64,000 bases of DNA from Planctomycetia bacterium (lineage in GTDB: Bacteria; Planctomycetota; Planctomycetia; Gemmatales; HRBIN36): positions 163,178 through 227,177 of the forward strand of contig JAEUIE010000015.1 of the NCBI GenBank assembly GCA_016795155.1. The letters are read 5' to 3'. A program made the translations under genes and the position numbers. The notes under the pieces are model-generated. The model was given only the letters and a program-made list of their open reading frames with translations, ran no database searches and was not told where the DNA came from. Positions 420 to 51,567 of the stretch are shown one piece after another; the stretch's first letter is position 1; each line of letters starts with the position of its first letter.

Positions 420-3254
420 ATGTTCCGACGCTGGTATCAAAGCAAGTACTCATCACAGAATCCCCGTCCGGTAGTTCTTCCACGCATGAAGCGTTACAGT
501 CTAAACCTTGAGAAGCTGGAAGACCGCACCGTACCCGCGGTAACCGCCAGTTTTTCTGCTGCAACAGGCAGCCTGACTATCTTTGGCGATAATCTGGATA
601 ACAACATCGTCATCAGTCGCAATACTGCTGGTGGAATTCTGGTCAATGGCGGTGCGGTAGCAATTCAAGGTGGAACCCCAACGGTTGCAAATACTGCAAT
701 GATCCAGGCTTTTGGTCAGGGTGGTAATGATCAGATTGCCCTCAATGAAGCCAATGGCGCCCTGCCTCGTGCCTTGCTGTTCGGTGGGGCTGGCAACGAC
801 GTGCTGACAGGAGGCTCTGCAGCAGACCAGCTATTTGGCCAGTCAGGCAATGACACCCTGCTTGGCAAAGGGGGGGCGGATTTTCTTTTCGGGGGAACGG
901 AGAACGACACACTGACAGGCGGCGATGCTGACGATCAGGTGTTCGGTGAATCAGGTGATGACCGCATGATCTGGAATCCCGGCGATGATACCGATCTGAA
1001 CGAAGGTGGTGCTGGCATTGATACCGTCGAAATCAACGGCGGCAACGGTGCCGAGCAGTTCACCACAACTGCCAATGGCACACGCGTACGGTTTGATCGA
1101 CTCGACCCTGCTCCATTCTCCATCGATATTGGCACCAGCGAAAACCTGGTCGTCAATATGAATGGCGGTAACGACAGTTTTTCTGCTACCGGCAATCTGG
1201 CGGCACTCATCAAAATTACCATAGATGGTGGCACGGGTAACGATACCATCCTTGGTTCCAACGGCATTGACTTGCTGCGGGGCGGCGATGGCGATGACTT
1301 CATTGATGGCCAGCAGGGCAACGATGTCGTCTTCATGGGTGCTGGTAACGATGTGTTCCAGTGGGATCCAGGTGATGGCAGCGATGTGGTAGAAGGCCAG
1401 GATGGCCTCGACACCATGCAGTTTAACGGCAGTGCAGGCAATGAAATTTTTGAAGCCTCGGTCAACGGTGGCCGTGTCAGGTTTACCCGTAACCTGGGCA
1501 ACATTGTCATGGATCTGGATGACGTCGAACGCATCAATCTCCAGATGTTGGGTGGCACGGACACGCTGATCGTCAACGATTTAAGTGGTACTGATGTCAC
1601 GGAGATCAACGCAAACCTGGCTGGTACTATCGGTGGCACAACCGGAGATAGTCAGTCTGATACCGTCATCGTCAATGGCAACAAGTTCAGCAATATTATT
1701 GACGTCTTTGGTGCGGGGACATCGGTAGCCGTGCTTGGAATGCCAACTGTCGTAAACATTACCCAATCTGAAGGAGCCAATGATGCTTTGGTCATCAATG
1801 GCATGGCAGGAAATGATGGAATCACAGCAACCACACTTCCGGCTGGTGTTGTTAAGCTGACGATAGACGGTGGTACAGGCAATGACACGTTACTTGGCAG
1901 TCAGGGGGCGGATGTTTTCTTCGGCGGCGATGGCGATGACTTTGTCTTCGGCGACAATGGCAATGATGTAGCCTTGCTGGGTGCTGGAAACGATGTGTTC
2001 CAGTGGGATCCGGGTGATGGCAACGACACCATTGAAGGGCAGGATGGCATTGATCAGATGCTCTTCTTCGGCTCTAACGCCAGCGAAAATATCAATATCG
2101 TGGCCAACGGCGGTCGAGTACTCTTCCTCCGTGATGTTGCCAACGTCACCATGGATTTGAACGACCTGGAAAACATCGAGTTCCGAGCCTTGGGCGGTGC
2201 GGATAACATCGTCGTGGGCGATCTTTCCGGTACGGATGTTGTCTCTATCGGCCTCGATCTTCGAGGGCCGAATGGTGGTGGCGATGGCGCTGCTGACTCT
2301 GTCACGGTCAATGGCACCAACGGCGCTGATGTCTTCGGAGCAGCCGGCGATGCAGGTGGGATCAACGTGTTCGGCCTGCACGCCAGTGTCAACATCTTCT
2401 TCCAGGAACAAGCCAATGATCGGTTAACGCTCAACGGTCTGGGTGGCGATGATGTAATCAATGCAACCTCACTGGAAGCCGATGGCATTCAACTCACCAT
2501 GAACGGTGGACTAGGCAACGACCTTTTCATCGGCAGCGAAGGCGATGACCTGATCAACGGCGGGGATGGCAACGATACTGCCCTCATGGGTGCCGGCGAC
2601 GATACCTTCATCTGGAACCCAGGAGATGACAACGACACACTGGAAGGTCAGGATGGTTTCGACCGAATGACCTTCAATGGTGCCAATATCTCTGAGAATA
2701 TTGACATTTCAGCCAATGGTGGTCGTGTGCGATTCTTTCGTAATGTTGCCAATGTCCTGATGGACCTGAATGACGTTGAAGGCATCGATTTCAATGCACT
2801 CGGGGGTGCAGATGTAATTGTGGTCAATGACTTAAGTGGCACGGATGTGGTGGAAGTGAACCTGAATCTGGCAGGATTTGGCGGCGTTGGCGATGCACAA
2901 CCCGATACTGTCATCGTTCAGGGAACACAGGCTGATGATGTCATACTTGCTCTGGGTGATGCATCAGGTAGCAGCGTACTCGGATTGGCAGCCCGGGTAA
3001 ATATCACGGGTGTTGAAGCAGTCAACGACCGTCTCGTCATCAATGCCGGAAGCGGAGATGATGTGATTGAAGCCTCCGGCTTGTCGAGTGCTGCTATTCA
3101 GTTAACCGGCAACGGCGAGGAAGGCAATGATGTGCTCGTCGGTGGTGATGGTAACGATGTTCTCACCGGCGGGGCTGGCGATGATGTGCTCATCGGCGGC
3201 CTGGGATTGGATATCCTCGATGGTGGGACTGGTGATAATGTTGTGATTCAGTAA
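420..3254 (+). CDS. Large RTX / hemolysin-type calcium-binding repeat protein (944 aa)
   Basis: GAGG lies 8 nt upstream of the ATG. Many GGxGxD nonapeptides are present (GGAGNDVLTGGSAADQLFGQSGNDTLLGKGGADFLFGG). Four W(N/D)PGD(G/D) modules occur. The N-terminus carries LEKLEDRTVPA. Confidence 0.85.
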   Translation: MFRRWYQSKYSSQNPRPVVLPRMKRYSLNLEKLEDRTVPAVTASFSAATGSLTIFGDNLDNNIVISRNTAGGILVNGGAVAIQGGTPTVANTAMIQAFGQGGNDQIALNEANGALPRALLFGGAGNDVLTGGSAADQLFGQSGNDTLLGKGGADFLFGGTENDTLTGGDADDQVFGESGDDRMIWNPGDDTDLNEGGAGIDTVEINGGNGAEQFTTTANGTRVRFDRLDPAPFSIDIGTSENLVVNMNGGNDSFSATGNLAALIKITIDGGTGNDTILGSNGIDLLRGGDGDDFIDGQQGNDVVFMGAGNDVFQWDPGDGSDVVEGQDGLDTMQFNGSAGNEIFEASVNGGRVRFTRNLGNIVMDLDDVERINLQMLGGTDTLIVNDLSGTDVTEINANLAGTIGGTTGDSQSDTVIVNGNKFSNIIDVFGAGTSVAVLGMPTVVNITQSEGANDALVINGMAGNDGITATTLPAGVVKLTIDGGTGNDTLLGSQGADVFFGGDGDDFVFGDNGNDVALLGAGNDVFQWDPGDGNDTIEGQDGIDQMLFFGSNASENINIVANGGRVLFLRDVANVTMDLNDLENIEFRALGGADNIVVGDLSGTDVVSIGLDLRGPNGGGDGAADSVTVNGTNGADVFGAAGDAGGINVFGLHASVNIFFQEQANDRLTLNGLGGDDVINATSLEADGIQLTMNGGLGNDLFIGSEGDDLINGGDGNDTALMGAGDDTFIWNPGDDNDTLEGQDGFDRMTFNGANISENIDISANGGRVRFFRNVANVLMDLNDVEGIDFNALGGADVIVVNDLSGTDVVEVNLNLAGFGGVGDAQPDTVIVQGTQADDVILALGDASGSSVLGLAARVNITGVEAVNDRLVINAGSGDDVIEASGLSSAAIQLTGNGEEGNDVLVGGDGNDVLTGGAGDDVLIGGLGLDILDGGTGDNVVIQ
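777..3110 (+). repeat. Intragenic tandem modules of the RTX gene: one short module, then three of 642, 636 and 609 nt
   Basis: Module starts are (I/M)(D/N)GG(T/L)GND at aa 269, 483 and 695, with the next block at aa 898. The W(D/N)PGD motif recurs at aa 185, 315, 529 and 732. DNA-level identity is visible, for example aacgatgtgttccagtgggatcc at about 1347 and about 1989. Confidence 0.8.
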
Positions 3255-5198: not shown

Positions 5199-6272
5199 TC
5201 AATCACCATTGGCCTGCTTCAGGTACCGGTCAAAGAACTGAGCGATCTCAGCCAGGCATTCTTTCGATTCTGGCGACGGGTAACTGGTGAGATACTCGGC
5301 ATGGCACATGCCTTCGAAGACATGGATTTCTGCAGGTATACCGGCAGCGCGGAGCTTGCGGTGTGTGCGTGCTGTGGTGCTAAGCAACAGATCGCGTGTG
5401 CCTGTAATCAGGATGGTTGGCGGAAAGCTGGTAAGGTCGCCATAGACAGGTGAGAGCATCGGGTCTTTCAGGTCTTTGCCATTGGCGTAGAGTTTCAGGC
5501 AGGCTTCAATTCTACCTTCGTAGCGACCCAACAGATGATCGATTTCTGCATTGAGGAATACGGTGTCACCAGTTTTGGTAAGGTCCGCACCCGGAGTGCC
5601 CAGGAGTAAGGCGGCGGGCATGGGCAGGTTTTCCTGTTTGCAGCGAAGCATGGTCGTCATCGTCAATCCGGCACCTGCAGAAGTGCCACCCATCACCACT
5701 GTTTTGGGTTGATGATTCTTGATCACTTCTTTCCACACAGCCAGCACATCGTCGGGTGCGGCGGGGAATGGATGATCGGGTGGCATACGATAATCGACTG
5801 AGAGAGTTGGCATTTGGCACGTATGGGCCAACAGAACCGCTTCCCCCGAGCCAGCGATGCCGCCATTAAACACAAATGCTCCGCCATGAACGTGAAACAG
5901 CAGGTTTTTCTCTTTGCCTGGTGCGATGGTTTTGGGTGTTACTTTATAACAGTTGACACCGGCAACGGTGACAGGCTCCACTTTGACACCCAGCATCGTG
6001 GCAAATCCAGTGACGATTTTCGTCGCGGCAGAGTCCGCGCCTTGTTGCAGTTTCTTCCAGCCTTCAGCCGTCGTCGGCATTTCGCCCACTGGAGAAACGG
6101 GCGTTGCAATGGATTTCTGCAACTGCGGCGAAACGGTGTTGGGAACAGGAATCGCTTTGGCAGGAACTTTGAGTTCAGGAAGTGTGCTCTTTTCCTGTGC
6201 TGCCATCATCAATGTGATGCAGAGAATGGTGGCCAGACTGACAAGGATACCTGATCGGAGAGATGCTGACAT
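5199..6272 (-). CDS. Secreted alpha/beta hydrolase, esterase/lipase (HSL / fold-3 type)
   Basis: Oxyanion motif HVHGGAF and nucleophile elbow GGTSAGAG. N-terminal hydrophobic signal GILVSLATILCITLMMAAQ. It lies 30 nt downstream of kynA on the same strand. Confidence 0.75.
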   Translation of the reverse strand: MSASLRSGILVSLATILCITLMMAAQEKSTLPELKVPAKAIPVPNTVSPQLQKSIATPVSPVGEMPTTAEGWKKLQQGADSAATKIVTGFATMLGVKVEPVTVAGVNCYKVTPKTIAPGKEKNLLFHVHGGAFVFNGGIAGSGEAVLLAHTCQMPTLSVDYRMPPDHPFPAAPDDVLAVWKEVIKNHQPKTVVMGGTSAGAGLTMTTMLRCKQENLPMPAALLLGTPGADLTKTGDTVFLNAEIDHLLGRYEGRIEACLKLYANGKDLKDPMLSPVYGDLTSFPPTILITGTRDLLLSTTARTHRKLRAAGIPAEIHVFEGMCHAEYLTSYPSPESKECLAEIAQFFDRYLKQANGD

Positions 6273-6302
6273 GGTTATTCCTATTGAGCGCGATTCAACA
6301 AG

Positions 6303-7073
6303 TTAGAATTCAGTTCGAATAGCCCAGAGGTCGGGAAACGCAGGCTTCAGTAGCGTAGTACGCAGATATTCCGCGCCGCTGGAGCCGCCGGTGCCTCGCT
6401 TGGTGCCGATGGTACGTTCCACCATTTTGACATGGCGGTAGCGCCATTCCTGGATGCCTTCATCCAGATCGACTAATCGTTCGCAGAATTCAGACAATGC
6501 CTGATCGGTACGGTAAATATGGATAAGCGTTTGCTGCATGGGCAGTGAGGCATTCACAGGCTGGGTAATATTACGTTGCAGAACATCTACTGGCACAGTG
6601 AAACCCCGGCGGGACAGGTAGCTGGTAAACCAATCCCATAGCGACGGAGACTGCATCCGTTTTTCCAGTTGTGCAAACTCTTTCCCGCCTGCAGGGTAAT
6701 GATTCATGGCAGCAGGCCGCTTGTGACCAAGGACAAATTCGAGTTCGCGAAACTGAGCTGACTGAAAGCCGCTACCTGATTCAAGCCGCTGGCGAAAGCT
6801 GAGAAACTCCAGCGGAGTCATCGTTTCCAGAATATCAACTTGAGCCACCAGCACTTTCAGAATAGTGAGCACCCGTTTCATCACATGACCGGCACGGGCC
6901 AGATCATCGTCAGCCAGCAGTTTCTGGATGTAATCAAGTTCGTGCAGCATTTCCTTGAACCAGAGTTCGTAAACCTGGTGAATGATGATGAAGAGCATTT
7001 CGTCATGCTCTCGCCCGGGCTCCTGCAGTAGCAGAAGCGGTTCGAGTTTCAGATAATCTGCATAGTTCGGCAT
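6303..7073 (-). CDS. kynA: Tryptophan 2,3-dioxygenase
   Basis: YADYLKLEPLLLLQEP...HDEMLFIIIHQVYELWFKEMLHELD and GGSSGAEYLR match the bacterial TDO signature. Confidence 0.9.
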   Translation of the reverse strand: MPNYADYLKLEPLLLLQEPGREHDEMLFIIIHQVYELWFKEMLHELDYIQKLLADDDLARAGHVMKRVLTILKVLVAQVDILETMTPLEFLSFRQRLESGSGFQSAQFRELEFVLGHKRPAAMNHYPAGGKEFAQLEKRMQSPSLWDWFTSYLSRRGFTVPVDVLQRNITQPVNASLPMQQTLIHIYRTDQALSEFCERLVDLDEGIQEWRYRHVKMVERTIGTKRGTGGSSGAEYLRTTLLKPAFPDLWAIRTEF

Positions 7074-7197
7074 ATCAATCAGGCTCCGTTCTTACACTCC
7101 CCATCTTACACATCCAGATTGAATGCCCAAGAAATTTCAGTTGCATGAACGAGTTCGTCATGCGAGATTCAGCATTACAAGTTAACGGAAACGATGA

Positions 7198-7986
7198 ATG
7201 AACATTGATCTCACAGGTAAGCGAGCCTTGGTATGCGGAGCTAGCCAAGGAATTGGCAAAGCGATAGCCTTCGAACTAGCATCGCTGGGGGCAGAGGTTA
7301 CGGTCTGTGGCCGAAATCAGCAGGTTCTGGAACAGGTGATGCAGCAGCTACCTGTTTCCCAAGGACAAAAGCATTCAGTGCTCGTGGCAGATTTCAGCTT
7401 GCCTGATCAGTTAAAGTCGGCTGTCATTTTGCATTTACAGACACATGGGCCAGTCAACATTCTGATCAATAATACCGGTGGGCCGCCACCTGGGCCTGTA
7501 CATTTGGCGGATACTACTGCATTCATCGCTGCATTTCAGCAGCATTTGATATGCAATCAGATTCTGGTACAGGCACTGCTGCCTGGTATGATGGAAACCC
7601 AGTATGGCCGTATCATCAACATCATTTCGACTTCGGTGAAGCAGCCTATTGCCAATCTGGGCGTATCGAACACGATTCGCGGGGCGGTAGCGAACTGGGC
7701 CAAGACCTTGGCGGGTGAACTGGGAAAATTTGGCATCACGGTCAACAACGTGTTGCCTGGTTCAACAGATACTGCAAGGCTGAATGCCATCATCGACATC
7801 AAAGCAGCCAAGGGTGGCAAATCGCGTGATGTAGTTGTGGAGGAAGAAAAAGCCATTGTGCCCCTGGGGCGATTTGCTCAGCCGGAAGAAATCGCATATG
7901 CTGTAGCCTTCCTGGCCAGTCCATCGGCTGCGTATATCAGTGGTATCAATTTGCCCGTGGATGGTGGCAGAACGGGTTGCCTATAG
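7198..7986 (+). CDS. Short-chain dehydrogenase/reductase family protein, atypical active site
   Basis: Rossmann motif GASQGIGKA and NNTGG are present. Where classical SDRs carry YxxxK, my hand alignment to FabG (recalled from memory) reads S157-N-T-I-R161. It is the first gene of the plus-strand kynurenine operon. Confidence 0.75.
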   Translation: MNIDLTGKRALVCGASQGIGKAIAFELASLGAEVTVCGRNQQVLEQVMQQLPVSQGQKHSVLVADFSLPDQLKSAVILHLQTHGPVNILINNTGGPPPGPVHLADTTAFIAAFQQHLICNQILVQALLPGMMETQYGRIINIISTSVKQPIANLGVSNTIRGAVANWAKTLAGELGKFGITVNNVLPGSTDTARLNAIIDIKAAKGGKSRDVVVEEEKAIVPLGRFAQPEEIAYAVAFLASPSAAYISGINLPVDGGRTGCL

Positions 7987-8010
7987 TAATCCAATCTGTG
8001 GGAGTACGGT

Positions 8011-9453
8011 GTGCAGAAGATAGCCAACTTTATTGATGGCATGAATCGCGAGCCTCTGAACGGCAGATATCTCGATAATGTTGAGCCTGCTACAGGCCGG
8101 GTCTATTCGTTATTGCCTGATTCGGATGCCAGCGATCTGGCACTCGCGGTTGCTTCTGCAGAAAAGGCGTTACCTGCCTGGAAAGCACTCGGTGCCGAAT
8201 CGCGAGCCAGAATGCTTTATGCCATTGCTGATGTCATTGAACGCAGACTCGAAGAGTTGGCTCGCGCCGAATCTATCGACAATGGCAAGCCACTCTCAAT
8301 TGCACGCATTCTGGATATTCCGCGCGCAGCTACTAATTTTCGATTCTTTGCCGCGGCTGCAACACAGTTCGCGAGTGAATCACATTCGGTTGGGCACGAG
8401 GCAATCAACTATACGCTTCGCGATCCGGTTGGCATCGTAGGGTGCATTTCCCCCTGGAATCTGCCGTTGTATCTGTTCACCTGGAAGATTGCCCCGGCTT
8501 TGGCAGCAGGCAATTGTGTGATTGGCAAGCCTTCAGAAATCACACCAATGACTGCCTTTCTGCTTGGCGAAATCTGCAACGAAGCAGGCTTGCCGCGAGG
8601 CGTTTTGAACATCGTTCATGGCCGAGGCAGCAGTATCGGCCATGCCCTAGTGACACATCCCAAGGTGAAAGCCATTTCGTTTACCGGTGGGACAGCGACT
8701 GGCGTAGCGATCGCAGCGCTGGCTGGACCACAGTTTAAGAAATTGTCGTTGGAAATGGGCGGCAAAAACCCGACACTGGTGTTTGCTGATTGTGACTATG
8801 AAACAACCGTTGAAGGTACCGTTCGAGCAGCCTTTGCCAACCAGGGTGAAATATGCCTTTGTGGCTCACGCATTCTTATCGAACGTTCGATTTACAACAG
8901 GTTTCGCGATGACTTCGTCAGTCAGGTTTCTGCTTTGAAAGTGGGCGATCCGCTCGATAACGAAACGCAGCAGGGAGCTTTGGTTTCTGAAACTCACATG
9001 GAGAAAGTGTTGTCGTATATCGAGCTGGCACGCAGCACCGGTGGAAGTGTCTTGGCTGGTGGCTATCGTGCCACGGTTCCAGGACGTTGCGCAGAGGGCT
9101 ATTTCGTACATCCCACGGTGATTGAGGGGTTGTCGGCTGAGTGCCGGGTCAATCAGGAAGAAATCTTTGGCCCGGTGGCTACACTCATTCCGTTTGATAC
9201 GGATACGGAGGCAGTGTCGATGGCAAACAGTGTTCGGTATGGACTGGCTGCATCAGTGTGGAGCAGTGATATCAAACGCTGTCATCGCGTGGCACGTGAG
9301 TTGGAATCAGGCGTGGTCTGGGTCAACTGCTGGATGATGCGTGATCTGCGTACTCCCTTTGGCGGAATGAAAGATTCCGGAGTTGGCCGGGAAGGTGGCC
9401 AGGAAGCCATGAGATTTTTCACCGAGCCTAAAAATGTATGTATCAGGTATTGA
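8011..9453 (+). CDS. NAD-dependent aldehyde dehydrogenase, probably 2-aminomuconate-6-semialdehyde dehydrogenase
   Basis: ALDH motifs LEMGGKNP and FANQGEICLCGSR (catalytic Cys). The substrate assignment comes from context, next to ACMSD and the RidA-type deaminase. Confidence 0.8.
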   Translation: MQKIANFIDGMNREPLNGRYLDNVEPATGRVYSLLPDSDASDLALAVASAEKALPAWKALGAESRARMLYAIADVIERRLEELARAESIDNGKPLSIARILDIPRAATNFRFFAAAATQFASESHSVGHEAINYTLRDPVGIVGCISPWNLPLYLFTWKIAPALAAGNCVIGKPSEITPMTAFLLGEICNEAGLPRGVLNIVHGRGSSIGHALVTHPKVKAISFTGGTATGVAIAALAGPQFKKLSLEMGGKNPTLVFADCDYETTVEGTVRAAFANQGEICLCGSRILIERSIYNRFRDDFVSQVSALKVGDPLDNETQQGALVSETHMEKVLSYIELARSTGGSVLAGGYRATVPGRCAEGYFVHPTVIEGLSAECRVNQEEIFGPVATLIPFDTDTEAVSMANSVRYGLAASVWSSDIKRCHRVARELESGVVWVNCWMMRDLRTPFGGMKDSGVGREGGQEAMRFFTEPKNVCIRY

Positions 9454-9468
9454 AAGGAAACATGCCGT

Positions 9469-9891
9469 ATGGCGTTCACTGAAGGCATCCATTCTTCAAA
9501 AGCTCCTGAACCTGTTGGGTTGTATCCACATGCCCGACAAGTGGGGAACCTCTTGTTTCTCTCTGGTGTGGGGCCACGTCAGCGAGGGAGCAAGGCCATT
9601 CCCGGCGTAACACTCAATGAGAGGGGGGAGATCATTGCTTACGACATCGCTGAACAGTGTCGATCAGTTTTTGCCAATGTTCGTGCGATTCTCGAAGAGG
9701 CTGGTAGCAGTTGGGAGAATCTGGTGGATGTCACCGTCTATCTCACCAACATGAAAGCTGACTTTGCCACATACAATAAGTTGTGGGCAGAGTACTTCAA
9801 AGATGTTCAGCCTTGCCGAACGACGCTGGAAATTAATTGCCTGCCAACGCCGATAGCCATTGAATTGAAGTGCATAGCGACCATTTCCTGA
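9469..9891 (+). CDS. RidA/YjgF-family protein, probably 2-aminomuconate deaminase
   Basis: 140 aa with the RidA fold pattern (LLFLSGVGP..., [12 protein letters not shown]). The characterised AmnD/NbaF deaminases belong to this family. The role is inferred from context. Confidence 0.7.
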
Positions 9892-9913
9892 CACCGTGAA
9901 CAAGGGGAAAGTC

Positions 9914-10432
9914 ATGTTGAACCAGGGTATCAACTTCCAGAAGTGGATCGAAGAGAACCGCCATTTGCTCAAGCCGCCGGTCTGTAACAAGAAAGTTTTT
10001 GCAACGGATGACTTTATCGTCATGGTGGTGGGTGGCCCTAACGCGCGGAAGGATTTTCATTTCCAGGAAGGGCCTGAGTTCTTTCATCAGTTGGAAGGTG
10101 AAATGGTGCTGCACACGATTCAGGATGGCAAACGCGTCGATATTCCGCTCAAAGCTGGTGAGATTTTCAACCTGCCTGGCCGTACGCCACACTCGCCGGA
10201 GCGCATGGCCAACTCTGTTGGTCTGGTCATTGAACGCAAACGCCAGCCTGGTGAACTTGACGGACTGCAATGGTACTGTGAAGGCTGCGACAACAAATTG
10301 TACGAAGAATTTTTCCCGCTAAAGAATATAGAGAAGGATTTTCCACCGATCTTTGAACGGTATTATGGCTCGGAGTCCAACCGGACATGTAAGAATTGTG
10401 GCAAGATTATGGAACCACCTGTAAAGAAGTAA
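9914..10432 (+). CDS. nbaC: 3-hydroxyanthranilate 3,4-dioxygenase
   Basis: [21 protein letters not shown] and a cupin core. The C-terminal CxxC...CxxC (CEGCDNKL...CKNCGKI) is the rubredoxin-like site of bacterial HAO. ATG at 9914 is preceded by GGGGA; the track's GTG at 9896 is an alternative start. Confidence 0.9.
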
Positions 10433-10434
10433 AC

Positions 10435-11445
10435 GTGTTCAAGATTGATATTCATACGCATATTCTGCCGCCGATGTGGCCTGACCTGCAACAGCAATAT
10501 GGCTACGGTGGGTTTGTGCAACTTGAAAGCTGTGGCTGTGATCGTGCCAGAATGACGATCGATGGCAAGTTCTTTCGTGAAATTGAAAGCAACTGCTGGG
10601 ATCCAGTCCGGCGAATGCAGGAATATGACCAGCATGATTGTCAGGTGCAGGTATTGTCAACGGTGCCGGTAATGTTCAGTTACTGGGCCAAGCCGGAACA
10701 TGGCTACGATTTGTCGCGATTGCTTAACGACCATATTGCTGATGTGGTGAGGACATACCCCAAGCGATTCGTGGGGCTGGGTACTGTTCCGATGCAGGAT
10801 GCAACGCTGGCAGTGCGGGAACTGCGACGATGTGTAAAAGATCTGCAGTTTCCAGGCATTCAGATTGGGTCCAATGTGAATGGTGTCAACCTTGATGATG
10901 CATCCCTGTATCCGGTGTTTGAAGCAGCGGAGCAGATGGGGGCTTGTCTGTTTGTGCATCCATGGGAAATGCTCGGCAAGGATCGCATGTCCAAGTACTG
11001 GATGCCCTGGCTGGTAGGCATGCCTTCGGAAACAACGCTCGCGATCTGCTCGGTGATATTTTCCGGACTGCTCGAAAAACTGCCTCGGCTACGTATTGCA
11101 TTTGCACATGGTGGTGGTGCATTTCCAGCAACCATTGGCCGCATTGCTCATGGCTTCGAAGCCCGGCCCGACTTGTGTGCCATCGATAACCGTGTGAATC
11201 CGCGAGAGTACTTGTCGCGAATCTATTACGATTCGCTGGTGCATGATGCGGAATACCTCAAATACTTTGTGGCAACGGTCGGTGCGGATCGCATTGCACT
11301 TGGAACGGATTATCCGTTTCCTCTGGGGGAAACTGTACCTGGTCATTTGATTGAAACCAGTGGATTTGATCGGAACACCCAGGAGAGGCTTCTGCATGGC
11401 ACAGCACTCGAATGGCTAAATCTGAAACGGGAGCATTTTGCTTGA
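10435..11445 (+). CDS. nbaD: 2-amino-3-carboxymuconate-6-semialdehyde decarboxylase (ACMSD, amidohydrolase family)
   Basis: KIDIHTHILPP, HPWEM, AFAHGGGAFP and DYPFPLGE. I prefer the GTG at 10435, just after the nbaC stop. The track's start at 10396 would overlap nbaC. Confidence 0.9.
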   Translation: MFKIDIHTHILPPMWPDLQQQYGYGGFVQLESCGCDRARMTIDGKFFREIESNCWDPVRRMQEYDQHDCQVQVLSTVPVMFSYWAKPEHGYDLSRLLNDHIADVVRTYPKRFVGLGTVPMQDATLAVRELRRCVKDLQFPGIQIGSNVNGVNLDDASLYPVFEAAEQMGACLFVHPWEMLGKDRMSKYWMPWLVGMPSETTLAICSVIFSGLLEKLPRLRIAFAHGGGAFPATIGRIAHGFEARPDLCAIDNRVNPREYLSRIYYDSLVHDAEYLKYFVATVGADRIALGTDYPFPLGETVPGHLIETSGFDRNTQERLLHGTALEWLNLKREHFA

Positions 11446-11453
11446 TTGCCACC

Positions 11454-12263
11454 ATGACAATCAATGGTCAATCGCTGCAAGCTGATTTCAGTAAGGGAAT
11501 TTGTGTAGGCATTCCAGTTGATTTTAATGGTTTGCAACCCAGCCACTTTGCGGCAAAACGCGCCAGCACTGTACCGATGAGGTCAGGTAGTTTCATTGGC
11601 GACACCAAACTGGGTGGTTCGTGCAATGTGCCTGTCATAACTATCAATCCACATTGCAACGGCACACATACCGAAAGCATTGGCCACATTGTTGATAATC
11701 AGTTTTCAGTGCATCAGGCACTACCTGGCGGATTGAAACTGGCGACGCTGATTTCTGTTGAACCAGCATCGGTAACTGCTATCGATAAGCATAACCGTCC
11801 TGCTCTCGTAAATGGAGATAAAGTAATTACCAAAATGATGCTGCATCAAGCATTGCAGCATATTTCAGCAGTTCGCTTTACTGCATTGTTGATTCGCACT
11901 TTACCAAACGATGAATCAAAACTAGGTGCAAGGTATGGTGAAACAACCTTACCGCCATTTTTCACAATCGAGGCGATTGATTACCTGAATCAACTCGGCG
12001 TCAAGCATCTCCTCGTTGACATGCCATCGGTTGATCGAATGCAGGATGAGGGTTTGCTGACAGTGCACCACCGGTTCTGGAACGTCGCAGAAGGCACGCA
12101 TTCGCTTCAAGCCGGATCATACATAGATAAAACAATTACAGAAATGATTTATGTTCCAGATGAAGTACGGGATGGAAACTATTTGCTCGATTTGCAGATT
12201 CCAGCATTCAGCACCGATGTGGCGCCATCCAGACCCTGGCTGTTTCCCGTGGAGTTCGTGTAA
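11454..12263 (+). CDS. Cyclase-family protein, candidate kynurenine formamidase (divergent)
   Basis: HCNGTHTESIGH resembles, but does not match, the cyclase/KynB motif HxGTHxDxPxH. A later VDMPSVD motif is present. It sits between ACMSD and kynU, with a TAATG overlap onto kynU. Confidence 0.5.
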   Translation: MTINGQSLQADFSKGICVGIPVDFNGLQPSHFAAKRASTVPMRSGSFIGDTKLGGSCNVPVITINPHCNGTHTESIGHIVDNQFSVHQALPGGLKLATLISVEPASVTAIDKHNRPALVNGDKVITKMMLHQALQHISAVRFTALLIRTLPNDESKLGARYGETTLPPFFTIEAIDYLNQLGVKHLLVDMPSVDRMQDEGLLTVHHRFWNVAEGTHSLQAGSYIDKTITEMIYVPDEVRDGNYLLDLQIPAFSTDVAPSRPWLFPVEFV

Positions 12264-13534
12264 TGTTTGATCGAACTCCAGACTATGCACAGGCAATGGA
12301 TCGTGATGATCCACTTGCACGGTTTCGCGATGAGTTTCATATTTCGGTTGGACACAACGGTCAGCAAGAAATCTATTTCTGTGGGAACTCACTGGGTCTG
12401 CAGCCGAAACGTACCGGAGCCTACGTCAGTGATTTTCTCAATGATTGGGCAACACGAGGAGTGCGAGGGCATTTTGAGGGCAATCATCCCTGGATGCCTT
12501 ACCATGAATTTCTGACAACGGGACTTGCATCACTGGCAGGTGCCCTGCCTCATGAAGTGGTTGCCATGAATTCCCTGACGGTCAACCTGCATCTGATGAT
12601 GGTGAGTTTCTATCGGCCGACCGTACAAAGGTTCAAAATTCTTATTGAAGAGCATGCCTTCCCATCAGATAGCTATGCAGTAGTTTCCCACTTGCAACAC
12701 CATGGTTTGGACCCTGCAGAAGCACTGGTAAAGGTAGCACAAAGACCAGGTTCAGAATTGATTGATGAAGCAGATTTGATGCAGATTATCGAGCAGCATG
12801 GGAAACAATTGAGTTTGATTCTGCTGCCTGGGGTACAGTACTACACCGGGCAGGTGTTACCCATGGCTGAAATCACCCGTATTGGGCATAATGTGGGTGC
12901 AATAGTTGGTTTTGATATGGCCCATGCTATGGGGAACATTCCACTGTTTCTGCATGAATGGGATGTCGATTTCGCTGTATGGTGCAGCTACAAGTATCTC
13001 AACAGTGGAGCGGGATCGGTAGCTGGCTGTTTCATTCATGAACGACATGTCCGGAACACCAGTTTGCATCGTTTCGCTGGTTGGTGGGGCCATGATAAAT
13101 CGACACGTTTCCAGATGGGCTCGGAGTTTCATGCCATGCCTACTGCGGAAGGCTGGCAACTGTCCAACCCTCCCATTCTGTCGCTTGCAGCCATGCGTGC
13201 ATCGCTCGATCTGTTTCGCGAAGCGGGTGGCTTGAGCGCCTTGCGAAAAAAGTCGGAACTGTTGACTGGCTACCTGGAATATCTGCTGAAGCTGGAATGT
13301 GGAGATCGTGTGCAGATCATCACGCCACATGATGCGAATCATCGAGGATGCCAACTGTCATTGAGCATTCGCAGTGGCCAGTATTCTGGCAAAGAGGTAC
13401 ATCAGCGGCTTGAGCAGGCTGGTGTAGCCTGCGATTGGCGAGAGCCGAATGTCATGCGCGTGGCGCCCGTGCCCCTTTATAACACCTTTACGGAAGTCTA
13501 TCGTTTTGTTCATCTTCTGAAGACATGGCTATGA
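12263..13534 (+). CDS. kynU: Kynureninase
   Basis: DPLARFRDEFHI at the N-terminus. PLP-lysine context WCSYKYLNSGAG. 423 aa. Confidence 0.9.
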   Translation: MFDRTPDYAQAMDRDDPLARFRDEFHISVGHNGQQEIYFCGNSLGLQPKRTGAYVSDFLNDWATRGVRGHFEGNHPWMPYHEFLTTGLASLAGALPHEVVAMNSLTVNLHLMMVSFYRPTVQRFKILIEEHAFPSDSYAVVSHLQHHGLDPAEALVKVAQRPGSELIDEADLMQIIEQHGKQLSLILLPGVQYYTGQVLPMAEITRIGHNVGAIVGFDMAHAMGNIPLFLHEWDVDFAVWCSYKYLNSGAGSVAGCFIHERHVRNTSLHRFAGWWGHDKSTRFQMGSEFHAMPTAEGWQLSNPPILSLAAMRASLDLFREAGGLSALRKKSELLTGYLEYLLKLECGDRVQIITPHDANHRGCQLSLSIRSGQYSGKEVHQRLEQAGVACDWREPNVMRVAPVPLYNTFTEVYRFVHLLKTWL

Positions 13535-14871
13535 GATCGAAACACATTATACTGGTGGGTGCTGGCCTGGTGGGAAGCCTGCTGGCGGTGTTCTTGGCAC
13601 GGCGAGGCTTCACCGTAACCGTTTATGAACGTCGGCCTGATCTGCGGAAGTCACGCATTTCAGCTGGGCGGTCCATCAACCTGGCTCTGGCCAATCGTGG
13701 CATGGCAGCTCTGGAGCGTGCTGGCATCCTGAAAGACCTGCGCCCCCTGCTTATCCCCATGGCGGGCCGAATGATTCATGATGAACAGGGGCAGACCTCG
13801 TTTCTGTCGTACGGGCATCGCCCCGAAGAAGTGATTTATTCCGTCTCGCGTGGAGGCCTGAACCAGAAATTGCTCGAACTGGCGGAAGCGGAAGGATCGA
13901 CCATTCATTTTGAGCAAAATTGCCTGGGTGTTGATTTTGCCAATAAGAAACTCAAGATGCTGAACGAAACAAATCGAAAAGAGGCTTGGCTGGATTTCGA
14001 AGTGGTGCTGGGCACCGATGGCTCTGCGTCGCATGTGCGGGATGCCATACTCCGTGCAACAGGTGGTAAGTGTGTTGAAGAGCCGTTGGGGCATGGCTAC
14101 AAGGAATTGACGATTGAAGCCGGGGCGGATGGCAGCTTTCGCATGGATGAGCGTTCGTTACACATCTGGCCACGCGGTGAATTCATGCTGATAGCCCTGC
14201 CCAACCCGGATGCATCATTTACTTTGACTTTGTTTCTTCCACAAACCGGTGCGGAGAGCTTTGCTACTCTGCAGGATAAGCAGTCAGTACATGATTTTTT
14301 CAGGAAGTATTTCCCCGATGCACGAGACATGATGCCTGATCTGACAGAACAGTTCTTCACCAACCCGCTGGGAAATCTGGCAACCATCTGGTGCGATACC
14401 TGGCATTATCGAGGCAATGCCTTGCTGCTGGGTGATGCTGCCCATGCTATTGTTCCTTTTCACGGCCAGGGTATGAATTGTGGTTTTGAAGATGTGGTCG
14501 CATTTGATCAATTATTGAACGATGAAGACATGCCTTGCGAAACTCTCTTTGAACGGTTCTTTGCGGAGCGAAAGCCGAACGCTGATGCCATTGCAACGAT
14601 GGCTCTCGAGAATTATGTTGAAATGCGGTCAACGGTGCGTGATCCGCGGTTCGCCTTGAAGAAAGTATTGTCTTTTGCTCTGGAAGATCGCTTCGGTCCT
14701 CGCTTCATCCCACGCTACTCAATGGTCATGTTCCATACCATGCCGTATGCCCAGGCGCAACAGCGAGGTATCATTCAGGAAGACATTCTCAATCAATTGA
14801 CGGCGGGCATCAGCAGCCTGGAACAAGTCGATTTCAGCCAGGCTAGTAGGTTGATTGAGCAGAAACTATAA
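13525..14871 (+). CDS. kmo: Kynurenine 3-monooxygenase
   Basis: FAD motif ILVGAGLVGSLLAVFLARRG, LLGDAAHAIVPFHGQGMNCGFED. 10-nt overlap with kynU. Confidence 0.9.
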   Translation: MAMRSKHIILVGAGLVGSLLAVFLARRGFTVTVYERRPDLRKSRISAGRSINLALANRGMAALERAGILKDLRPLLIPMAGRMIHDEQGQTSFLSYGHRPEEVIYSVSRGGLNQKLLELAEAEGSTIHFEQNCLGVDFANKKLKMLNETNRKEAWLDFEVVLGTDGSASHVRDAILRATGGKCVEEPLGHGYKELTIEAGADGSFRMDERSLHIWPRGEFMLIALPNPDASFTLTLFLPQTGAESFATLQDKQSVHDFFRKYFPDARDMMPDLTEQFFTNPLGNLATIWCDTWHYRGNALLLGDAAHAIVPFHGQGMNCGFEDVVAFDQLLNDEDMPCETLFERFFAERKPNADAIATMALENYVEMRSTVRDPRFALKKVLSFALEDRFGPRFIPRYSMVMFHTMPYAQAQQRGIIQEDILNQLTAGISSLEQVDFSQASRLIEQKL

Positions 14872-15462
14872 TCAGGTTCGAGATACTTCGTATGCTTCAA
14901 TCTGCTGTTTGAACTTCAGTATGTAGCCCAGTTCATCCAGATCATTCAGTAGGCAGGTTTTGGAGAAACTATCCACCTGGAAAGTGCTGCTGGTTCCGTC
15001 AGGTAATCGGATCGTTTGTGCTGCCAGGTCTATGGTTACCTTGGTATCTGGATGGCTTTGAGCGAGTTGCACTAGTTTGGAATAAAATGATGCATCGTCG
15101 CAGACGACAGGCAGAACGCCATTTTTAAGGGCGTTGGATTTAAAGATATCGGCAAACCCTTGAGCGATCACAGCCTGGATACCCCAGGCTCGCAATGCCC
15201 AGGGAGCATGTTCACGCGAAGAACCACATCCGAAATTGTCGCCAGCAAGCAGGATGGTCTGTTCCTGGTGAGCAGACTGATTGAGGACAAAATCAGGCTT
15301 GGGTTTGCCAGCCGCATCATAACGCCAGTCAGCAAACAGGTTTTCGCCGAGGCCGTTCTTATCGGTTACTTTGAGAAACCGGGCAGGAATGATCTGGTCG
15401 GTATCGATATCATTTCGCACCAGGGGAATCAGGCGTGATGTCAGTGTGGTAAAGCGAGCCAT
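14872..15462 (-). CDS. leuD: 3-isopropylmalate dehydratase small subunit
   Basis: NDIDTDQIIPARFLK and GDNFGCGSSREHAPWAL. Confidence 0.9.
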   Translation of the reverse strand: MARFTTLTSRLIPLVRNDIDTDQIIPARFLKVTDKNGLGENLFADWRYDAAGKPKPDFVLNQSAHQEQTILLAGDNFGCGSSREHAPWALRAWGIQAVIAQGFADIFKSNALKNGVLPVVCDDASFYSKLVQLAQSHPDTKVTIDLAAQTIRLPDGTSSTFQVDSFSKTCLLNDLDELGYILKFKQQIEAYEVSRT

Positions 15463-15483
15463 GGCATTTCCAGCAAGATATTA

Positions 15484-16896
15484 TCAGTTGATCAGTTTCC
15501 GAACATCCGTCACCACCCCCGTCACTGCAGCAGCGGCTGCGGTCAGAGGACTGGCCAGAAACGTACGTCCGCCAGGACCCTGTCTGCCTTCGAAATTGCG
15601 GTTACTCGTACTCACAGCATACTGTCCGGGGCTGATCTGGTCGCCATTCATGGCAATGCACATGGAGCAGCCGCTTTCACGCCACTCGGCACCGGCCTGC
15701 TTGAAGATATCAGCCAAGCCTTCCTGTTCCGCCTGCTTCTTAATCTCCTGCGAGCCAGGCACTACCAGCGTGCGCACATGCGAAGCAATTTTTCTACCCT
15801 GGAAAACACGGGCTGCCTCTCGCAAATCGCTGATGCGGGAATTGGTGCAACTGCCAATGAAGACAACGTCAATCTTGTGGCCGAGCAGTGGCTTGCCTGC
15901 AGGCAAGGCCATGTATTGCATGGCTTTCTCCAGCGCTGCCCGCTCGGTGCTGTCGCTGATGCTGGCAGGATCGGGAATTGCACTCGAAATAGGCATTCCC
16001 ATTCCTGGATTGGTGCCATAGGTAATCATTGGCTCCAATTGGCTGGCATCAATGGAAATAGTTTTGTCGAAAGCTGCACCTTCATCACTGGCCAGTGCCT
16101 TCCACTTCGCCACCGCTTTGTCCCAGTCCGAACCCTTGGGGCAGTGTTCCTTGCCATGCAGATACTGGAACGTGACATCATCGGGAGCTACCAGCCCTGC
16201 CCTGGCGCCGCCTTCGATGGACATATTGCAGACAGTCATTCTGCCTTCCATCGACAAGGCTCTGATGGCAGAGCCTGTATATTCAAAGACGTGAGCAGTG
16301 CCACCACGCACACCTATCTTGGCGAGCAAAGCCAGAATGATGTCCTTGGGTGAAACGCCTGGTTTCAGCGTTCCATCCACTTTCACTTCAAATGATTTCG
16401 GCTTCCGCTGCAGTAGACACTGCGATGCGAGCACGTGTTCCACTTCGCTGGTGCCGATGCCAAAGGCGAGTGCTCCGAAAGCACCGTGCGTTGCAGTGTG
16501 GCTGTCGCCACAAACAATAGTCATGCCAGGCTGAGTGAGTCCCAGTTCAGGGCCGATGACGTGGACAATTCCCCGATGCGGGCTGCCCAGGCCATGAAGC
16601 GTAACTCCAAATTCCTTACAGTTCTGTTCCAGCTTGCGGCATTGCTGGGCAGCCATGTCATCGGCCATTTCCAGTCCGCGACCTTGCGTTGGAATGCTGT
16701 GATCGAGAGTTGCAACTGTGCGATCCGTACGGTGTACTTTGAGGCCACGTTTGCGCAGTCCATCAAATGCCTGGGGCGAAGTGACTTCGTGGACCAGGTG
16801 CAGATCAATGTAAAGCACTGCAGGAGCACCAGATTCCTGATGCACCACGTGGTTATCCCAGATTTTGTCAATGATCGTTCGTGGCTGTTTCGACAT
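15484..16896 (-). CDS. leuC: 3-isopropylmalate dehydratase large subunit
   Basis: Aconitase-family motifs [29 protein letters not shown] and NRNFEGRQG. Confidence 0.92.
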
Positions 16897-16898
16897 AG

Positions 16899-18128
16899 TT
16901 AGCCAACACTCACGGTAACGCGAACAGGTTTGTTGGTCCCATTGGTGGCGCCAATGGGTTCTTTCATCAGCGAGATAAGGTCTGCATCGTGAATCTGCTT
17001 CTTCTTGTCTGCCAGAGTTTTGAAGCGTGCAAAGATGCAGTCGAGATCCTGATCAGCCAGTACGTGCCCGAGTTCTTCCATGCGGGCTTTGAAAGCATGT
17101 CGGCCTGAATGCTTGCCTAGCACCAGATTGGTCTTGGTGACACCTACTGATTCAGGTCGCATGATTTCGTAGGTGGTGGCATTTTTCAGCATGCCATCCT
17201 GATGAATGCCCGCTTCATGTGCAAATGCATTGGCACCAACAATGGCCTTGTTGGGTTGAACCACGATGCCGGTGTAACCAGAAACCATTTTGCTCACATG
17301 TGCAATCTGCGTGGTATCTATCCCCGTTCGCAGGTTATAAACAGGCTTGCGGGTATTTAAAGCCATCACCACTTCTTCGAGAGCAGTGTTGCCTGCCCGT
17401 TCGCCGATGCCATTGATGGTGACTTCCGCCTGCCGAGCTCCGGCACGAATGCCAGCCAGACTGTTGGCCGTTGCCAGGCCCAGATCATTATGGCAATGAA
17501 CCGAGACGATGCAGTTATCAATACCCTTGGTATTCTTGATGATGCCTGCAATCAGTTGGCCATATTCTTCAGGAATGGTGTAGCCCACCGTATCAGGAAT
17601 ATTGAGCGTGGTTGCACCGGCACGAATGGCCAAGGCCAGCACCTCATACAGAAATGCAGGGTCGCTGCGGCCTGCATCTTCCGGCGAAAATTCTACATCA
17701 GCACAGAGTGAATGAGCATAGCCAACCATTTCGAGCACTTTGTCCATAACCTGCCTGGGTTCCATCTTCAGCTTGTGCTTCATGTGGATTTCGGAAGTAG
17801 CCAGGAAAGTATGGATGCGGGGCCTTTTTGCATGTTGCACAGCTTCCCAGGCTTTGTCGATATCGCTGAATGCTGTACGGGCTAATCCACAAATGATGGG
17901 AGGTTCGTTGCCATTAATGGACTCGTTGCCAACGGTTTTGGCGATCGTTCGAACGGCTTCCAGGTCGTCAGGCGAAGCAGCGGGGAAACCTGCTTCCATC
18001 ACGTCTACACCCAGGCGAGCCAGAGCGCCGGCGATTTCCAGTTTTTCTGCGGAGGTTAAAGTTGCACCGGGGGACTGTTCACCATCGCGAAGCGTGGTGT
18101 CGAATATGCGAACGTAATCGTTACTCAT
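16899..18128 (-). CDS. leuA: 2-isopropylmalate synthase-like enzyme, short form (409 aa, no C-terminal regulatory domain)
   Basis: [14 protein letters not shown] and [16 protein letters not shown] define the catalytic TIM barrel. The ORF stops 2 nt before the leuC start, leaving no room for the roughly 110-aa LeuA_dimer domain. Confidence 0.8.
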
Positions 18129-45394: not shown

Positions 45395-46447
45395 TCAGCA
45401 GATGCGGGGTAGCGGCGAACCACTGGGTTCATCCAGTGATTGTTCCCGCCCCAAGGTTCGGCGAATAATCACGGGAGTTACAGCACGAGACTCAACTCTG
45501 CCAATGATCGCAGCGTGACGTGAGATTTCAACCTTGCGAAGTATCGAAACTGCCTCTTCGGCATGTTGTGCTGAAACTGCCATCAGCATTGTTCCTTCGC
45601 ATGCCAGATGCAGAGGCTCTAATCCCAGCAGTTCACAGGCGCTGCGGGTAACTGCATCAATCGGGATGCAACTTTCATCAACGAATAGCGTCTTCTGGCT
45701 GGCTATTGCCCATTCATGCAGTACAGCAGTGATTCCGCCACGGGTGGCATCACGCATGGCACGCACTTCGCTGCCAATTCCAGTTCGCAATGCACTGATG
45801 GCAGGGAGCAACAATGCTCCATCACTGCTGGGTGCAGGGTGGAAATCAAGTTGCTCACGTGCAGCAAGAATGGCAATGCCATGCCGGCCAATGTGGCCGG
45901 ACGTTATCAAGACATCTCCTTCCTGTAGCGACTCTGCTCCAGGTGGAACAGGTTCCATCAACTCCCCAATGCCTGTAGTATTTAGGAAAATTCCATCCGC
46001 TTCACCATGCGGTACCACCTTGGTATCTCCGGTGATAATCTGCACCTGGCACTCGGCTGTGGTTTGGGCGATGCTATGGAGAACTTTCTCCAGCACAGCT
46101 ATTGGCAAGCCTTCCTCCAGAATCAGGGAAAGGCTCAGCCAACGTGGAATGGCGCCACTCACTGCGAGATCATTACAGGTGCCATACACTGCAAGTGAAC
46201 CAATATCGCCACCAGGGAAAAAGATGGGGGAAACCACATAGCTATCAGTGCTGAACGCAAGCCTGTTGCCTGCTGGCTGCAGAATAGCAGCATCGGCAAA
46301 GGGCAAAGTACATCCCAGGCTGGGATGTACTATTTGATCCAGTAAACGCCGCATGAGCCTGCCACCCTCGCCATGAGCGAGTGTGACACAGTCGGACTGT
46401 GCGGATACGCTCACCGGACAATTAAGTAACCAGGCAGGGTGGGCCAT
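45395..46447 (-). CDS. hypE: Hydrogenase maturation protein HypE
   Basis: LAHGEGGRLMRRLL near the N-terminus, an AIR-synthase-like fold, and the canonical C-terminal PRIC. I prefer the start at MAHPAW (46447). The track's 62-aa extension overlaps hypD. Confidence 0.9.
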   Translation of the reverse strand: MAHPAWLLNCPVSVSAQSDCVTLAHGEGGRLMRRLLDQIVHPSLGCTLPFADAAILQPAGNRLAFSTDSYVVSPIFFPGGDIGSLAVYGTCNDLAVSGAIPRWLSLSLILEEGLPIAVLEKVLHSIAQTTAECQVQIITGDTKVVPHGEADGIFLNTTGIGELMEPVPPGAESLQEGDVLITSGHIGRHGIAILAAREQLDFHPAPSSDGALLLPAISALRTGIGSEVRAMRDATRGGITAVLHEWAIASQKTLFVDESCIPIDAVTRSACELLGLEPLHLACEGTMLMAVSAQHAEEAVSILRKVEISRHAAIIGRVESRAVTPVIIRRTLGREQSLDEPSGSPLPRIC

Positions 46448-46460
46448 CGAGTCATTCCTG

Positions 46461-47558: not shown

Positions 47559-47826
47559 GAATGTCGCCCGCTGGTGGTATCTCGGTTGCCAACTCTTCGC
47601 GTAATGCAAACTGGTCAAGTTCATCAAACAGGCGGCGTGCCTCATCTGGGTTGACCTTGCTGATGGCTATGCCAGCATGGACGATGACGTAATCTCCTAT
47701 CTCCGCTTCGGGCACGCACGCCAAGTGACAGACACGGGACAATTCACCAAACCGCACTTCTGCCCTGGCCAGTAGCGGATCGCGGTCGATCCATCGCGTT
47801 ACTTCGCCGGGAATTCCCAGGCACAT
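47545..47826 (-). CDS. hypC: Hydrogenase maturation chaperone HypC
   Basis: N-terminal MCLGIPGEV. 93 aa. 14-nt overlap with hypD. Confidence 0.9.
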   Translation of the reverse strand: MCLGIPGEVTRWIDRDPLLARAEVRFGELSRVCHLACVPEAEIGDYVIVHAGIAISKVNPDEARRLFDELDQFALREELATEIPPAGDIHEIP

Positions 47827-47835
47827 AACAACTCC

Positions 47836-50746: not shown

Positions 50747-50764
50747 GAGCAGTCTTTCAAATCC

Positions 50765-51557: not shown

Positions 51558-51567
51558 AGGCCTTTTT

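Follow-up and report, generated by a model that had tools for sequence, protein, structure and literature searches.

Since the 1960s, tryptophan catabolism has had a gap at the conversion of 2-aminomuconate to 2-oxoadipate. In bacteria, the clusters of the amn/nba type have an upstream half that encodes 3-hydroxyanthranilate 3,4-dioxygenase (HAO), ACMS decarboxylase (ACMSD), 2-aminomuconate-6-semialdehyde dehydrogenase (AMSDH), and a RidA-type deaminase, and a lower, meta-cleavage half that encodes 4-oxalocrotonate decarboxylase (4-OD), hydratase, aldolase, and acetaldehyde dehydrogenase and ends in pyruvate and acetyl-CoA. In a preprint of June 2026, human ASPDH is reported to be a 2-aminomuconate reductase (AMR) that makes 2-aminohex-3-enedioate; the metazoan enzyme was found by its co-evolution with genes of the pathway, the fungal step is carried out by a RidA-type deaminase, with the fate of 2-oxohex-3-enedioate left open, and deaminase and reductase are mutually exclusive among eukaryotes (10.64898/2026.06.05.730449). 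Here, we analyze a 64,000-nt stretch from the metagenome-assembled genome (MAG) of a Planctomycetia bacterium (the window, whose positions serve as coordinates throughout), in which a 262-residue short-chain dehydrogenase/reductase (SDR) heads a tightly packed kynurenine operon. The initial annotation of this DNA had taken the gene for the mammalian step as not firmly assigned, a statement that the preprint has overtaken (10.64898/2026.06.05.730449). With that step given to ASPDH, what the SDR could still fill is the step behind the deaminase in bacteria and possibly in fungi. We give roughly even odds (about 0.5) to a reading in which the SDR works as an ene (C=C) reductase that uses NADPH and converts 2-oxohex-3-enedioate into 2-oxoadipate.

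The operon runs on the plus strand in the order SDR, AMSDH, RidA, HAO, ACMSD, a cyclase-like protein, kynureninase (KYNU), and kynurenine 3-monooxygenase (KMO), with tryptophan 2,3-dioxygenase (TDO) divergent (Table 1). Its genes overlap or are at most 24 nt apart, which is the distance between SDR and AMSDH. An SDR-led operon with a divergent kynA was what the initial annotation had proposed, and this gene content is borne out by Pfam, NCBIfam, and PDB matches. The upstream half is that of the amn/nba-type pathway, but the lower genes are absent, as had also been claimed. Querying the 64-kb window by tblastn with E. coli MhpD (of the 4-OD/hydratase family), MhpE, and MhpF revealed no 4-OD, hydratase, aldolase, or acetaldehyde dehydrogenase and no homologue of MhpE/DmpG or MhpF/DmpF; this query set drew a single, weak match, on LeuA (16899-18128). 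When most of the remaining large open reading frames (ORFs) in the window were scanned with Pfam, they likewise showed no meta-cleavage genes and gave unrelated functions (zinc ABC transporter, GH57, PPDK, hyp genes, [NiFe] hydrogenase, RND pump). Within the 64-kb window, the operon is therefore not a cluster of the amn/nba type. It is predicted to end in 2-oxoadipate.

In the SDR, other residues stand at three of the four positions of the catalytic tetrad. When aligned to E. coli FabG, by MAFFT together with four orthologues and by BLASTP, the protein shares with FabG the classical SDR fold, 33% identity, and the Gly-rich, NNAG-like, and PG motifs, but FabG Tyr151 and Lys155 are not conserved. 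K155 corresponds to R161, and Y151 falls in a two-residue gap or, in gapless register, on S157. The Asn of the tetrad is occupied by H116, whereas the catalytic Ser is kept as S146 or S144. The protein belongs to the SDR superfamily by its Rossmann fold and its TGxxxGxG and NNAG-type motifs, but it lacks the Asn-Ser-Tyr-Lys tetrad of the classical SDRs. The initial annotation had read this position by hand as S157-N-T-I-R161 and had suspected that the Tyr/Lys dyad was absent; the MAFFT and BLASTP alignments agree with that reading and contain no intact YxxxK.

The replacement is a property of the whole orthologue set. Two collections, independent of each other, contributed its 112 sequences, which have 45% identity or more and represent, among other groups, Bacteroidota, Gammaproteobacteria, Planctomycetota, Ignavibacteria, and Calditrichaceae. 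None of the 112 has a Tyr in residues 147-165. All of them share R39, S144-T145-S146, S157-N158, R161, and R194; 110 have H116 and 108 have the orthogroup-specific R258. The loss of YxxxK is a fixed trait of this lineage. A merely displaced Tyr can be eliminated because the only invariant tyrosines, Y136 (in a 15-sequence set) and Y246, both lie outside residues 147-165. The cofactor site is intact, with G14-A-S-Q-G18-I-G20 (GxxxGxG), R39-N40 after strand 2, D65, N91-N92-T-G-G, and the PG motif, and the cofactor is likely NADPH, since the nearest structures are all NADP(H) complexes. Identities of 57-85% over at least five phyla, together with the invariant cofactor and replacement residues, argue for strong purifying selection.

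The closest characterized relative of the SDR is AerF of Microcystis aeruginosa (6jh7/6jha/6jhb). A structure model of the SDR (pTM 0.83) gives exclusively SDRs as Foldseek matches; AerF is the best of these, with a TM score of 0.86 and ∼35-36% identity. In the PDB sequence search, AerF is second (E = 1.8e-41) to a Burkholderia SDR, 5va8 (E = 1.8e-42), and both searches thus point to AerF and a set of orphan Burkholderia SDRs. AerF reduces H2HPP to H4HPP, acting on a C=C bond that is in conjugation with a 2-oxo acid, and BacG/YwfH, which is also among the SDR matches, carries out this type of reduction too. The structure 6jhb is a complex of AerF with NADPH and 4-hydroxyphenylpyruvate, a 2-oxo acid. 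In passages of PMC10143770 (citing its ref. 59) and PMC13256417, AerF is described as an NADPH-dependent reductase. The window SDR and AerF have in common the G-R-N that serves NADPH, the II-x-T-S-x-K-(Q/E)-P segment after strand 5, a Ser at the Tyr position, and the absence of YxxxK. The 2-aminomuconate deamination product, 2-oxohex-3-enedioate, is in the same chemical class as the substrate of AerF, which suggested to us that the window SDR may carry out an AerF-type C=C reduction. AerF is an enzyme of secondary metabolism whose substrate is a cyclic monocarboxylate; the SDR, in contrast, stands in a catabolic operon and would act on a linear dicarboxylate. Such a substrate would fit R161 and R258, which AerF lacks. 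The initial annotation had suggested a reduction toward 2-oxoadipate, and AerF supplies, by analogy, a chemical precedent that supports it.

AerF and the window SDR belong to a larger Tyr-less clade, which we delimited by Ser-(Asn)-x-x-(Arg/Asn), the T-S-x-K-(Q/E)-P loop, and G-R-N. The Burkholderia proteins 5va8, 5idx, and 5vps, all structural-genomics NADP(H) complexes, share L-S-N-x-x-R in place of YxxxK, and the S-N-x-x-R replacement extends through paralogues down to ∼35% identity in our search. A library clustered at 50% gave 801 representatives at E < 1e-30; in the best 150 of these 801, which we inspected, H116 and the C-terminal DGGRT segment are confined to a subgroup of ∼45% identity or more. 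The Burkholderia proteins and the wider set of paralogues, in contrast to the window SDR, keep Asn where H116 stands, have no R258, and lie in unrelated gene contexts. The best NCBIfam model is PRK08339, which we take to correspond to CDD cd05344 ("BKR-like SDR-like"); its score of 181 bits is under the cut-off of 339, so the window SDR is not that equivalog. No NCBIfam equivalog takes in the protein, and the source annotations are generic (3-oxoacyl-ACP reductase, SDR family oxidoreductase). FabG itself can be eliminated: the protein reaches 125 bits with TIGR01830 (cut-off 297.75) and 159 with NF009466 (cut-off 222), the Tyr and Lys are absent, and the neighbors are kynurenine-pathway genes with no fab gene among them. 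Paralogues on plasmids (41-44% identity) have heterogeneous contexts that offer no clue, some beside genes of the dihydrodipicolinate-synthase (DHDPS) family. We note that in Alphaproteobacteria (locus L086, 7078-8771, and plasmid matches H36, H37, and H41-H43) Tyr-less paralogues of ∼41% identity are repeatedly fused to a DHDPS-family gene or directly follow one, a linkage that may be a sign that this subgroup, too, uses a 2-oxo acid.

The gene neighborhoods tie the SDR to the kynurenine pathway. In a scan of one genome per GTDB species, at least 598 stretches encode a relative of the SDR. We examined the surroundings of the best 80 of these (57-66% identical), counted over 79 species-level loci from Bacteroidota, Gammaproteobacteria, Ignavibacteria, Calditrichaceae, and Bdellovibrionales, at least five phyla in all; because the loci kept are those most similar to each query, all such counts are biased to close relatives. 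At least one kynurenine-pathway gene lies within 10 kb in 59 of the 79 loci. A pathway gene is the immediate neighbor in 43 of the 79 (AMSDH 25, HAO 16, TDO 7, ACMSD-like 4); where the locus extends for 5 kb or more to each side, the figure is 43 of 53. When all neighboring ORFs are clustered without prior assumptions, the nine commonest clusters after the SDR itself are all pathway genes: AMSDH, HAO, KMO, KYNU, RidA, TDO, ACMSD, a second ACMSD-like amidohydrolase, and the cyclase-like protein. The order SDR-AMSDH-RidA-HAO-ACMSD-cyclase-KYNU-KMO recurs in gammaproteobacterial loci (L006, L045, L074, L089, L090, L113), where the cyclase-like gene keeps its place. The locus of another Gemmatales MAG (L088) has TDO, again divergent, followed by SDR-AMSDH-RidA-HAO-ACMSD-KYNU-KMO. 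ACMSD orthologues of 52-63% identity occur in the same clusters as the SDR orthologues. Cultured bacteria that carry an SDR orthologue include Kangiella koreensis, Thalassotalea, Microbulbifer marinus, Aquimarina, Marinicella sediminis, and Pleionea sediminis. As for the second ACMSD-like gene, several flavobacterial loci (L032, L038, L062, L063, L072, L075; for example, L038 11468-13421) carry a divergent amidohydrolase only 24-32% identical to ACMSD, followed by a conserved caffeoyl-CoA-type O-methyltransferase (PF01596).

The association also holds in the reverse direction. An independent metagenome scan seeded with AMSDH gave 25 gene-rich clusters, here those that hold three or more further pathway genes along with an AMSDH whose identity to that of the window is 50% or higher. 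An SDR orthologue is present in 18 of the 25, a 4-OD-like FAA hydrolase takes its place in two, neither gene is found in five (two of them incomplete loci), and none has both. The initial annotation had proposed co-occurrence of the SDR with ACMSD and AMSDH genes as a test, and the outcome is strongly positive in both directions. Among the 112 SDR loci, one has an FAA hydrolase as well and none has DmpG; this mutual exclusion is seen at the level of the locus and is partly confounded by taxonomy. The window lacks the amn/nba-type lower genes, as do 111 of the 112 loci, and the amn/nba-type clusters that we examined have no SDR. The clusters of a Cupriavidus pauculus plasmid and of Rhodococcus pLRE138, for example, hold RidA, HAO, AMSDH, 4-OD/FAA hydrolases, DmpF, DmpG, and ACMSD and no SDR, and the positive controls L083 and L085 carry meta-cleavage genes. 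Plasmid and chromid records yielded no SDR orthologue (best identity 44%), though 78 of them hold HAO. When we looked for a third alternative enzyme in pathway clusters with neither the SDR nor a 4-OD-like gene (L120, L147, L149, L166), we found just unrelated genes, e.g., for rhamnose biosynthesis, PNP oxidase, and transporters.

The individual exceptions are worth describing. In L138, whose cluster is AMSDH-RidA-HAO-ACMSD-KYNU-KMO, the FAA hydrolase (∼9100-9927, minus strand) fills the slot directly upstream of AMSDH, the usual place of the SDR. In L111, an FAA hydrolase (11512-12090, minus strand) accompanies an AMSDH-HAO-ACMSD-like cluster with TDO and no SDR. The single locus with both SDR and FAA hydrolase is that of Mesonia aestuariivivens (L075), in which RidA and AMSDH are separated by the insertion, inside the cluster, of an AbiH-like abortive-infection gene (5799-8408).

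Taken together, the predicted picture is one in which an SDR from the Tyr-less, AerF-like branch would have been recruited as the last dedicated enzyme of an operon for the catabolism of tryptophan and 3-hydroxyanthranilate. TDO, formamidase, KMO, kynureninase, HAO, and ACMSD would lead to 2-aminomuconate semialdehyde, which AMSDH would oxidize to 2-aminomuconate. The RidA-type deaminase, or spontaneous hydrolysis, would then give 2-oxohex-3-enedioate (4-oxalocrotonate/2-hydroxymuconate). The SDR would transfer a hydride from NADPH to C4 of this compound, with protonation at C3, and the resulting 2-oxoadipate would enter the glutaryl-CoA route by way of enzymes encoded elsewhere. In a plausible arrangement of the active site, Arg residues such as R161 and R258 would bind both carboxylates and either a His or a Ser (H116 or S157) would be the proton donor. 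The SDR would thus stand in for the 4-oxalocrotonate decarboxylase, hydratase, and aldolase branch of the amn/nba-type clusters. The candidate assignment amounts to a predicted functional variant, new in its otherwise known superfamily, and to a variant form of the lower kynurenine pathway.

Several observations weigh against this reading. AerF differs at the putative catalytic positions (H116 is K, N120 is Y, R161 is N, and R258 is L in AerF), so its mechanism is not simply transferable, and the active-site loop 146-157 has a pLDDT below 50 in the model. About a quarter of the SDR loci (20/79) have no pathway gene within 10 kb. Neither 2-oxoadipate dehydrogenase nor glutaryl-CoA dehydrogenase is conserved in the SDR neighborhoods. 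Finally, 11 of the 38 gene-rich SDR clusters have no RidA nearby, and direct action of the SDR on 2-aminomuconate would fit these clusters too.

That alternative is the strongest of the three we considered, although we regard it as unlikely. The SDR would be a 2-aminomuconate reductase, an analogue of ASPDH/AMR, that acts directly on the enamine/imine delivered by AMSDH to give a compound of the 2-aminohexenedioate or 2-aminoadipate type or, once hydrolyzed, 2-oxoadipate. AMSDH is the commonest immediate neighbor of the SDR, the lability of 2-aminomuconate favors a straight hand-over to the next enzyme, SDR-type imine reductases are among the structural matches (e.g., 5ff9), and a metazoan NAD(P)H-dependent 2-aminomuconate reductase exists (10.64898/2026.06.05.730449). 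However, RidA is present with the SDR in the other 27 of the 38 gene-rich clusters, the window included, whereas the eukaryotic deaminase and reductase exclude each other. This suggests that the SDR accompanies the deaminase rather than replacing it and that the two catalyze consecutive steps. In addition, 4-OD-like hydrolases, with which the SDR alternates, catalyze a step later than deamination, and the ligand of the nearest characterized relative of the SDR is a 2-oxo acid rather than an amino acid.

The comparison with the metazoan enzyme is instructive here. Both would be NAD(P)H-dependent reductases placed just after AMSDH with no meta-cleavage branch, which for the SDR is a predicted role. 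ASPDH/AMR, however, has the aspartate dehydrogenase fold and acts on 2-aminomuconate itself to the exclusion of a deaminase, whereas the window protein is an SDR and occurs together with one. A tblastn search with a bacterial ASPDH (from Ruegeria, L084) found no homologue in any of 161 related loci. The query comes from plasmid pTHAF33_a of Ruegeria sp. THAF33, where HAO lies beside an annotated ASPDH, a DHDPS-family gene, a succinate-semialdehyde dehydrogenase, and a TRAP transporter (8010-10531); this ASPDH could be the bacterial counterpart of the metazoan ASPDH-type 2-aminomuconate reductase.

Less likely still is that the SDR serves another redox step of the pathway, such as reduction of 2-oxoadipate to 2-hydroxyadipate, conversion of a semialdehyde or cyclization by-product of the picolinate/quinolinate branch, or detoxification. 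The association is with the whole lower kynurenine pathway, HAO alone adjoins the SDR in many Bacteroidota loci, and the substrate cannot be read from the sequence while several pathway intermediates are reactive. Carbonyl reduction by SDRs, however, normally needs the Tyr/Lys dyad that is missing here, no known pathway step calls for such an enzyme, and the SDR's alternation with 4-OD-like genes implicates the node at 4-oxalocrotonate. Very improbable, finally, is a generic FabG-like ketoreductase or catalytically dead SDR that is adjacent by chance, as the database names, the three lost tetrad residues, and the loci without pathway neighbors might suggest, because the protein scores far under every FabG equivalog cut-off, its sequence is conserved over phyla at both the cofactor site and the replacement residues, its gene association is bidirectional and non-random, and AerF shows that Tyr-less members of the clade are active enzymes.

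A shade more tentatively than the assignment of the window SDR as a 2-oxohex-3-enedioate reductase, we put forward a wider proposal: the orthogroup would be the missing 2-oxohex-3-enedioate (4-oxalocrotonate) reductase that completes a widespread pathway leading bacteria from tryptophan to 2-oxoadipate and glutaryl-CoA, a third solution beside 4-OD-based meta-cleavage and ASPDH/AMR, and its conserved His, Ser, and Arg in place of Asn, Tyr, and Lys would be a new arrangement for ene reduction in the SDR fold. Our literature search found no paper that links an SDR to the reduction of 2-oxohex-3-enedioate, 4-oxalocrotonate, or 2-hydroxymuconate or to ACMSD clusters. It returned a figure legend in which an "oxalocrotonate reductase" is named but linked to no gene, and a syntenic SDR of Aspergillus that is unrelated; a search on the orphan structure codes gave nothing relevant. 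The SDR is a concrete candidate, clonable and assayable, for the consumption of the deamination product without a meta-cleavage branch. If the proposal is true, it would call for a large-scale correction of "FabG" and "SDR family" annotations, supply the first physiological role for a member of the large group of Tyr-less SDRs, which includes several orphan crystal structures, and provide an enzyme source for 2-oxoadipate, an adipate precursor, from aromatic ring-cleavage products.

Table 1. Features of the kynurenine locus, in window positions, with the matches or observations on which each assignment is based
Feature	Position	Strand	Basis
Tryptophan 2,3-dioxygenase (TDO, kynA)	6303-7073	-	Pfam Trp_dioxygenase 2.6e-61, TIGR03036 7e-82
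Divergent intergenic region, 124 bp	7074-7197		Presumed TDO and operon promoters, from position only
Tyr-less SDR, candidate NADPH-dependent 2-oxohex-3-enedioate reductase	7198-7986	+	Pfam adh_short_C2 2.7e-40, adh_short 6.8e-37
2-Aminomuconate-6-semialdehyde dehydrogenase (AMSDH)	8011-9453	+	Pfam Aldedh 1.3e-165
RidA-family protein, probable 2-aminomuconate deaminase	9469-9891	+	Pfam Ribonuc_L-PSP 1.4e-26
3-Hydroxyanthranilate 3,4-dioxygenase (HAO)	9896-10432	+	PRK13264 253 bits (cut-off 220), TIGR03037 238 (cut-off 146)
ACMS decarboxylase (ACMSD)	10435-11445	+	Pfam Amidohydro_2 5.9e-41
Cyclase-family (PF04199) protein	11412-12263	+	Pfam Cyclase 7.3e-11; weak TIGR03035 arylformamidase match 1.4e-4
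Kynureninase (KYNU)	12263-13534	+	TIGR01814 455.7 bits (cut-off 246)
Kynurenine 3-monooxygenase (KMO)-like flavoprotein	13525-14871	+	Pfam FAD_binding_3 1e-18

The remaining operon genes can be assigned with the help of structures and context. The top PDB matches of AMSDH (7bzv, 4u3w, and 4i1w, E ∼1e-133 to 1e-136) are all AMSDH, and the second PDB match of the RidA protein is the 2-aminomuconate deaminase 6izh (7e-21). ACMSD probably starts at the GTG at 10435, right behind the HAO stop codon, the mechanical ORF beginning at 10396. The KMO assignment is based on context and on a match to a related NCBIfam model of the VioC type; its orthologues adjoin kynureninase in many related clusters. 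A scan of 6200-15600 for sigma-70 promoter and terminator consensus sequences was not informative and gave fewer promoter-like sites than shuffled sequence.

The cyclase-family protein likely starts at the ATG at 11454 and had no match in a PDB sequence search. Since it holds the same operon position in the gammaproteobacterial clusters, it is probably a divergent kynurenine formamidase, and we list it as a candidate for that step. Directly downstream of TDO, the minus strand encodes an alpha/beta hydrolase of the hormone-sensitive-lipase family with a GTSAG motif and a signal-peptide-like N-terminus (5199-6272), for which a formamidase role may be one link to the pathway.

Two further features of the window lie apart from the operon. 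On the minus strand, at 45395-55635, a HypE-, HypD-, and HypF-like maturation set adjoins a cluster that resembles a four-subunit soluble [NiFe] hydrogenase (large, small, FAD/NAD-binding, and 4Fe-4S subunits), which is notable for a planctomycete MAG. On the plus strand, at 420-3254, a 944-residue protein carries multiple RTX calcium-binding nonapeptide repeats.

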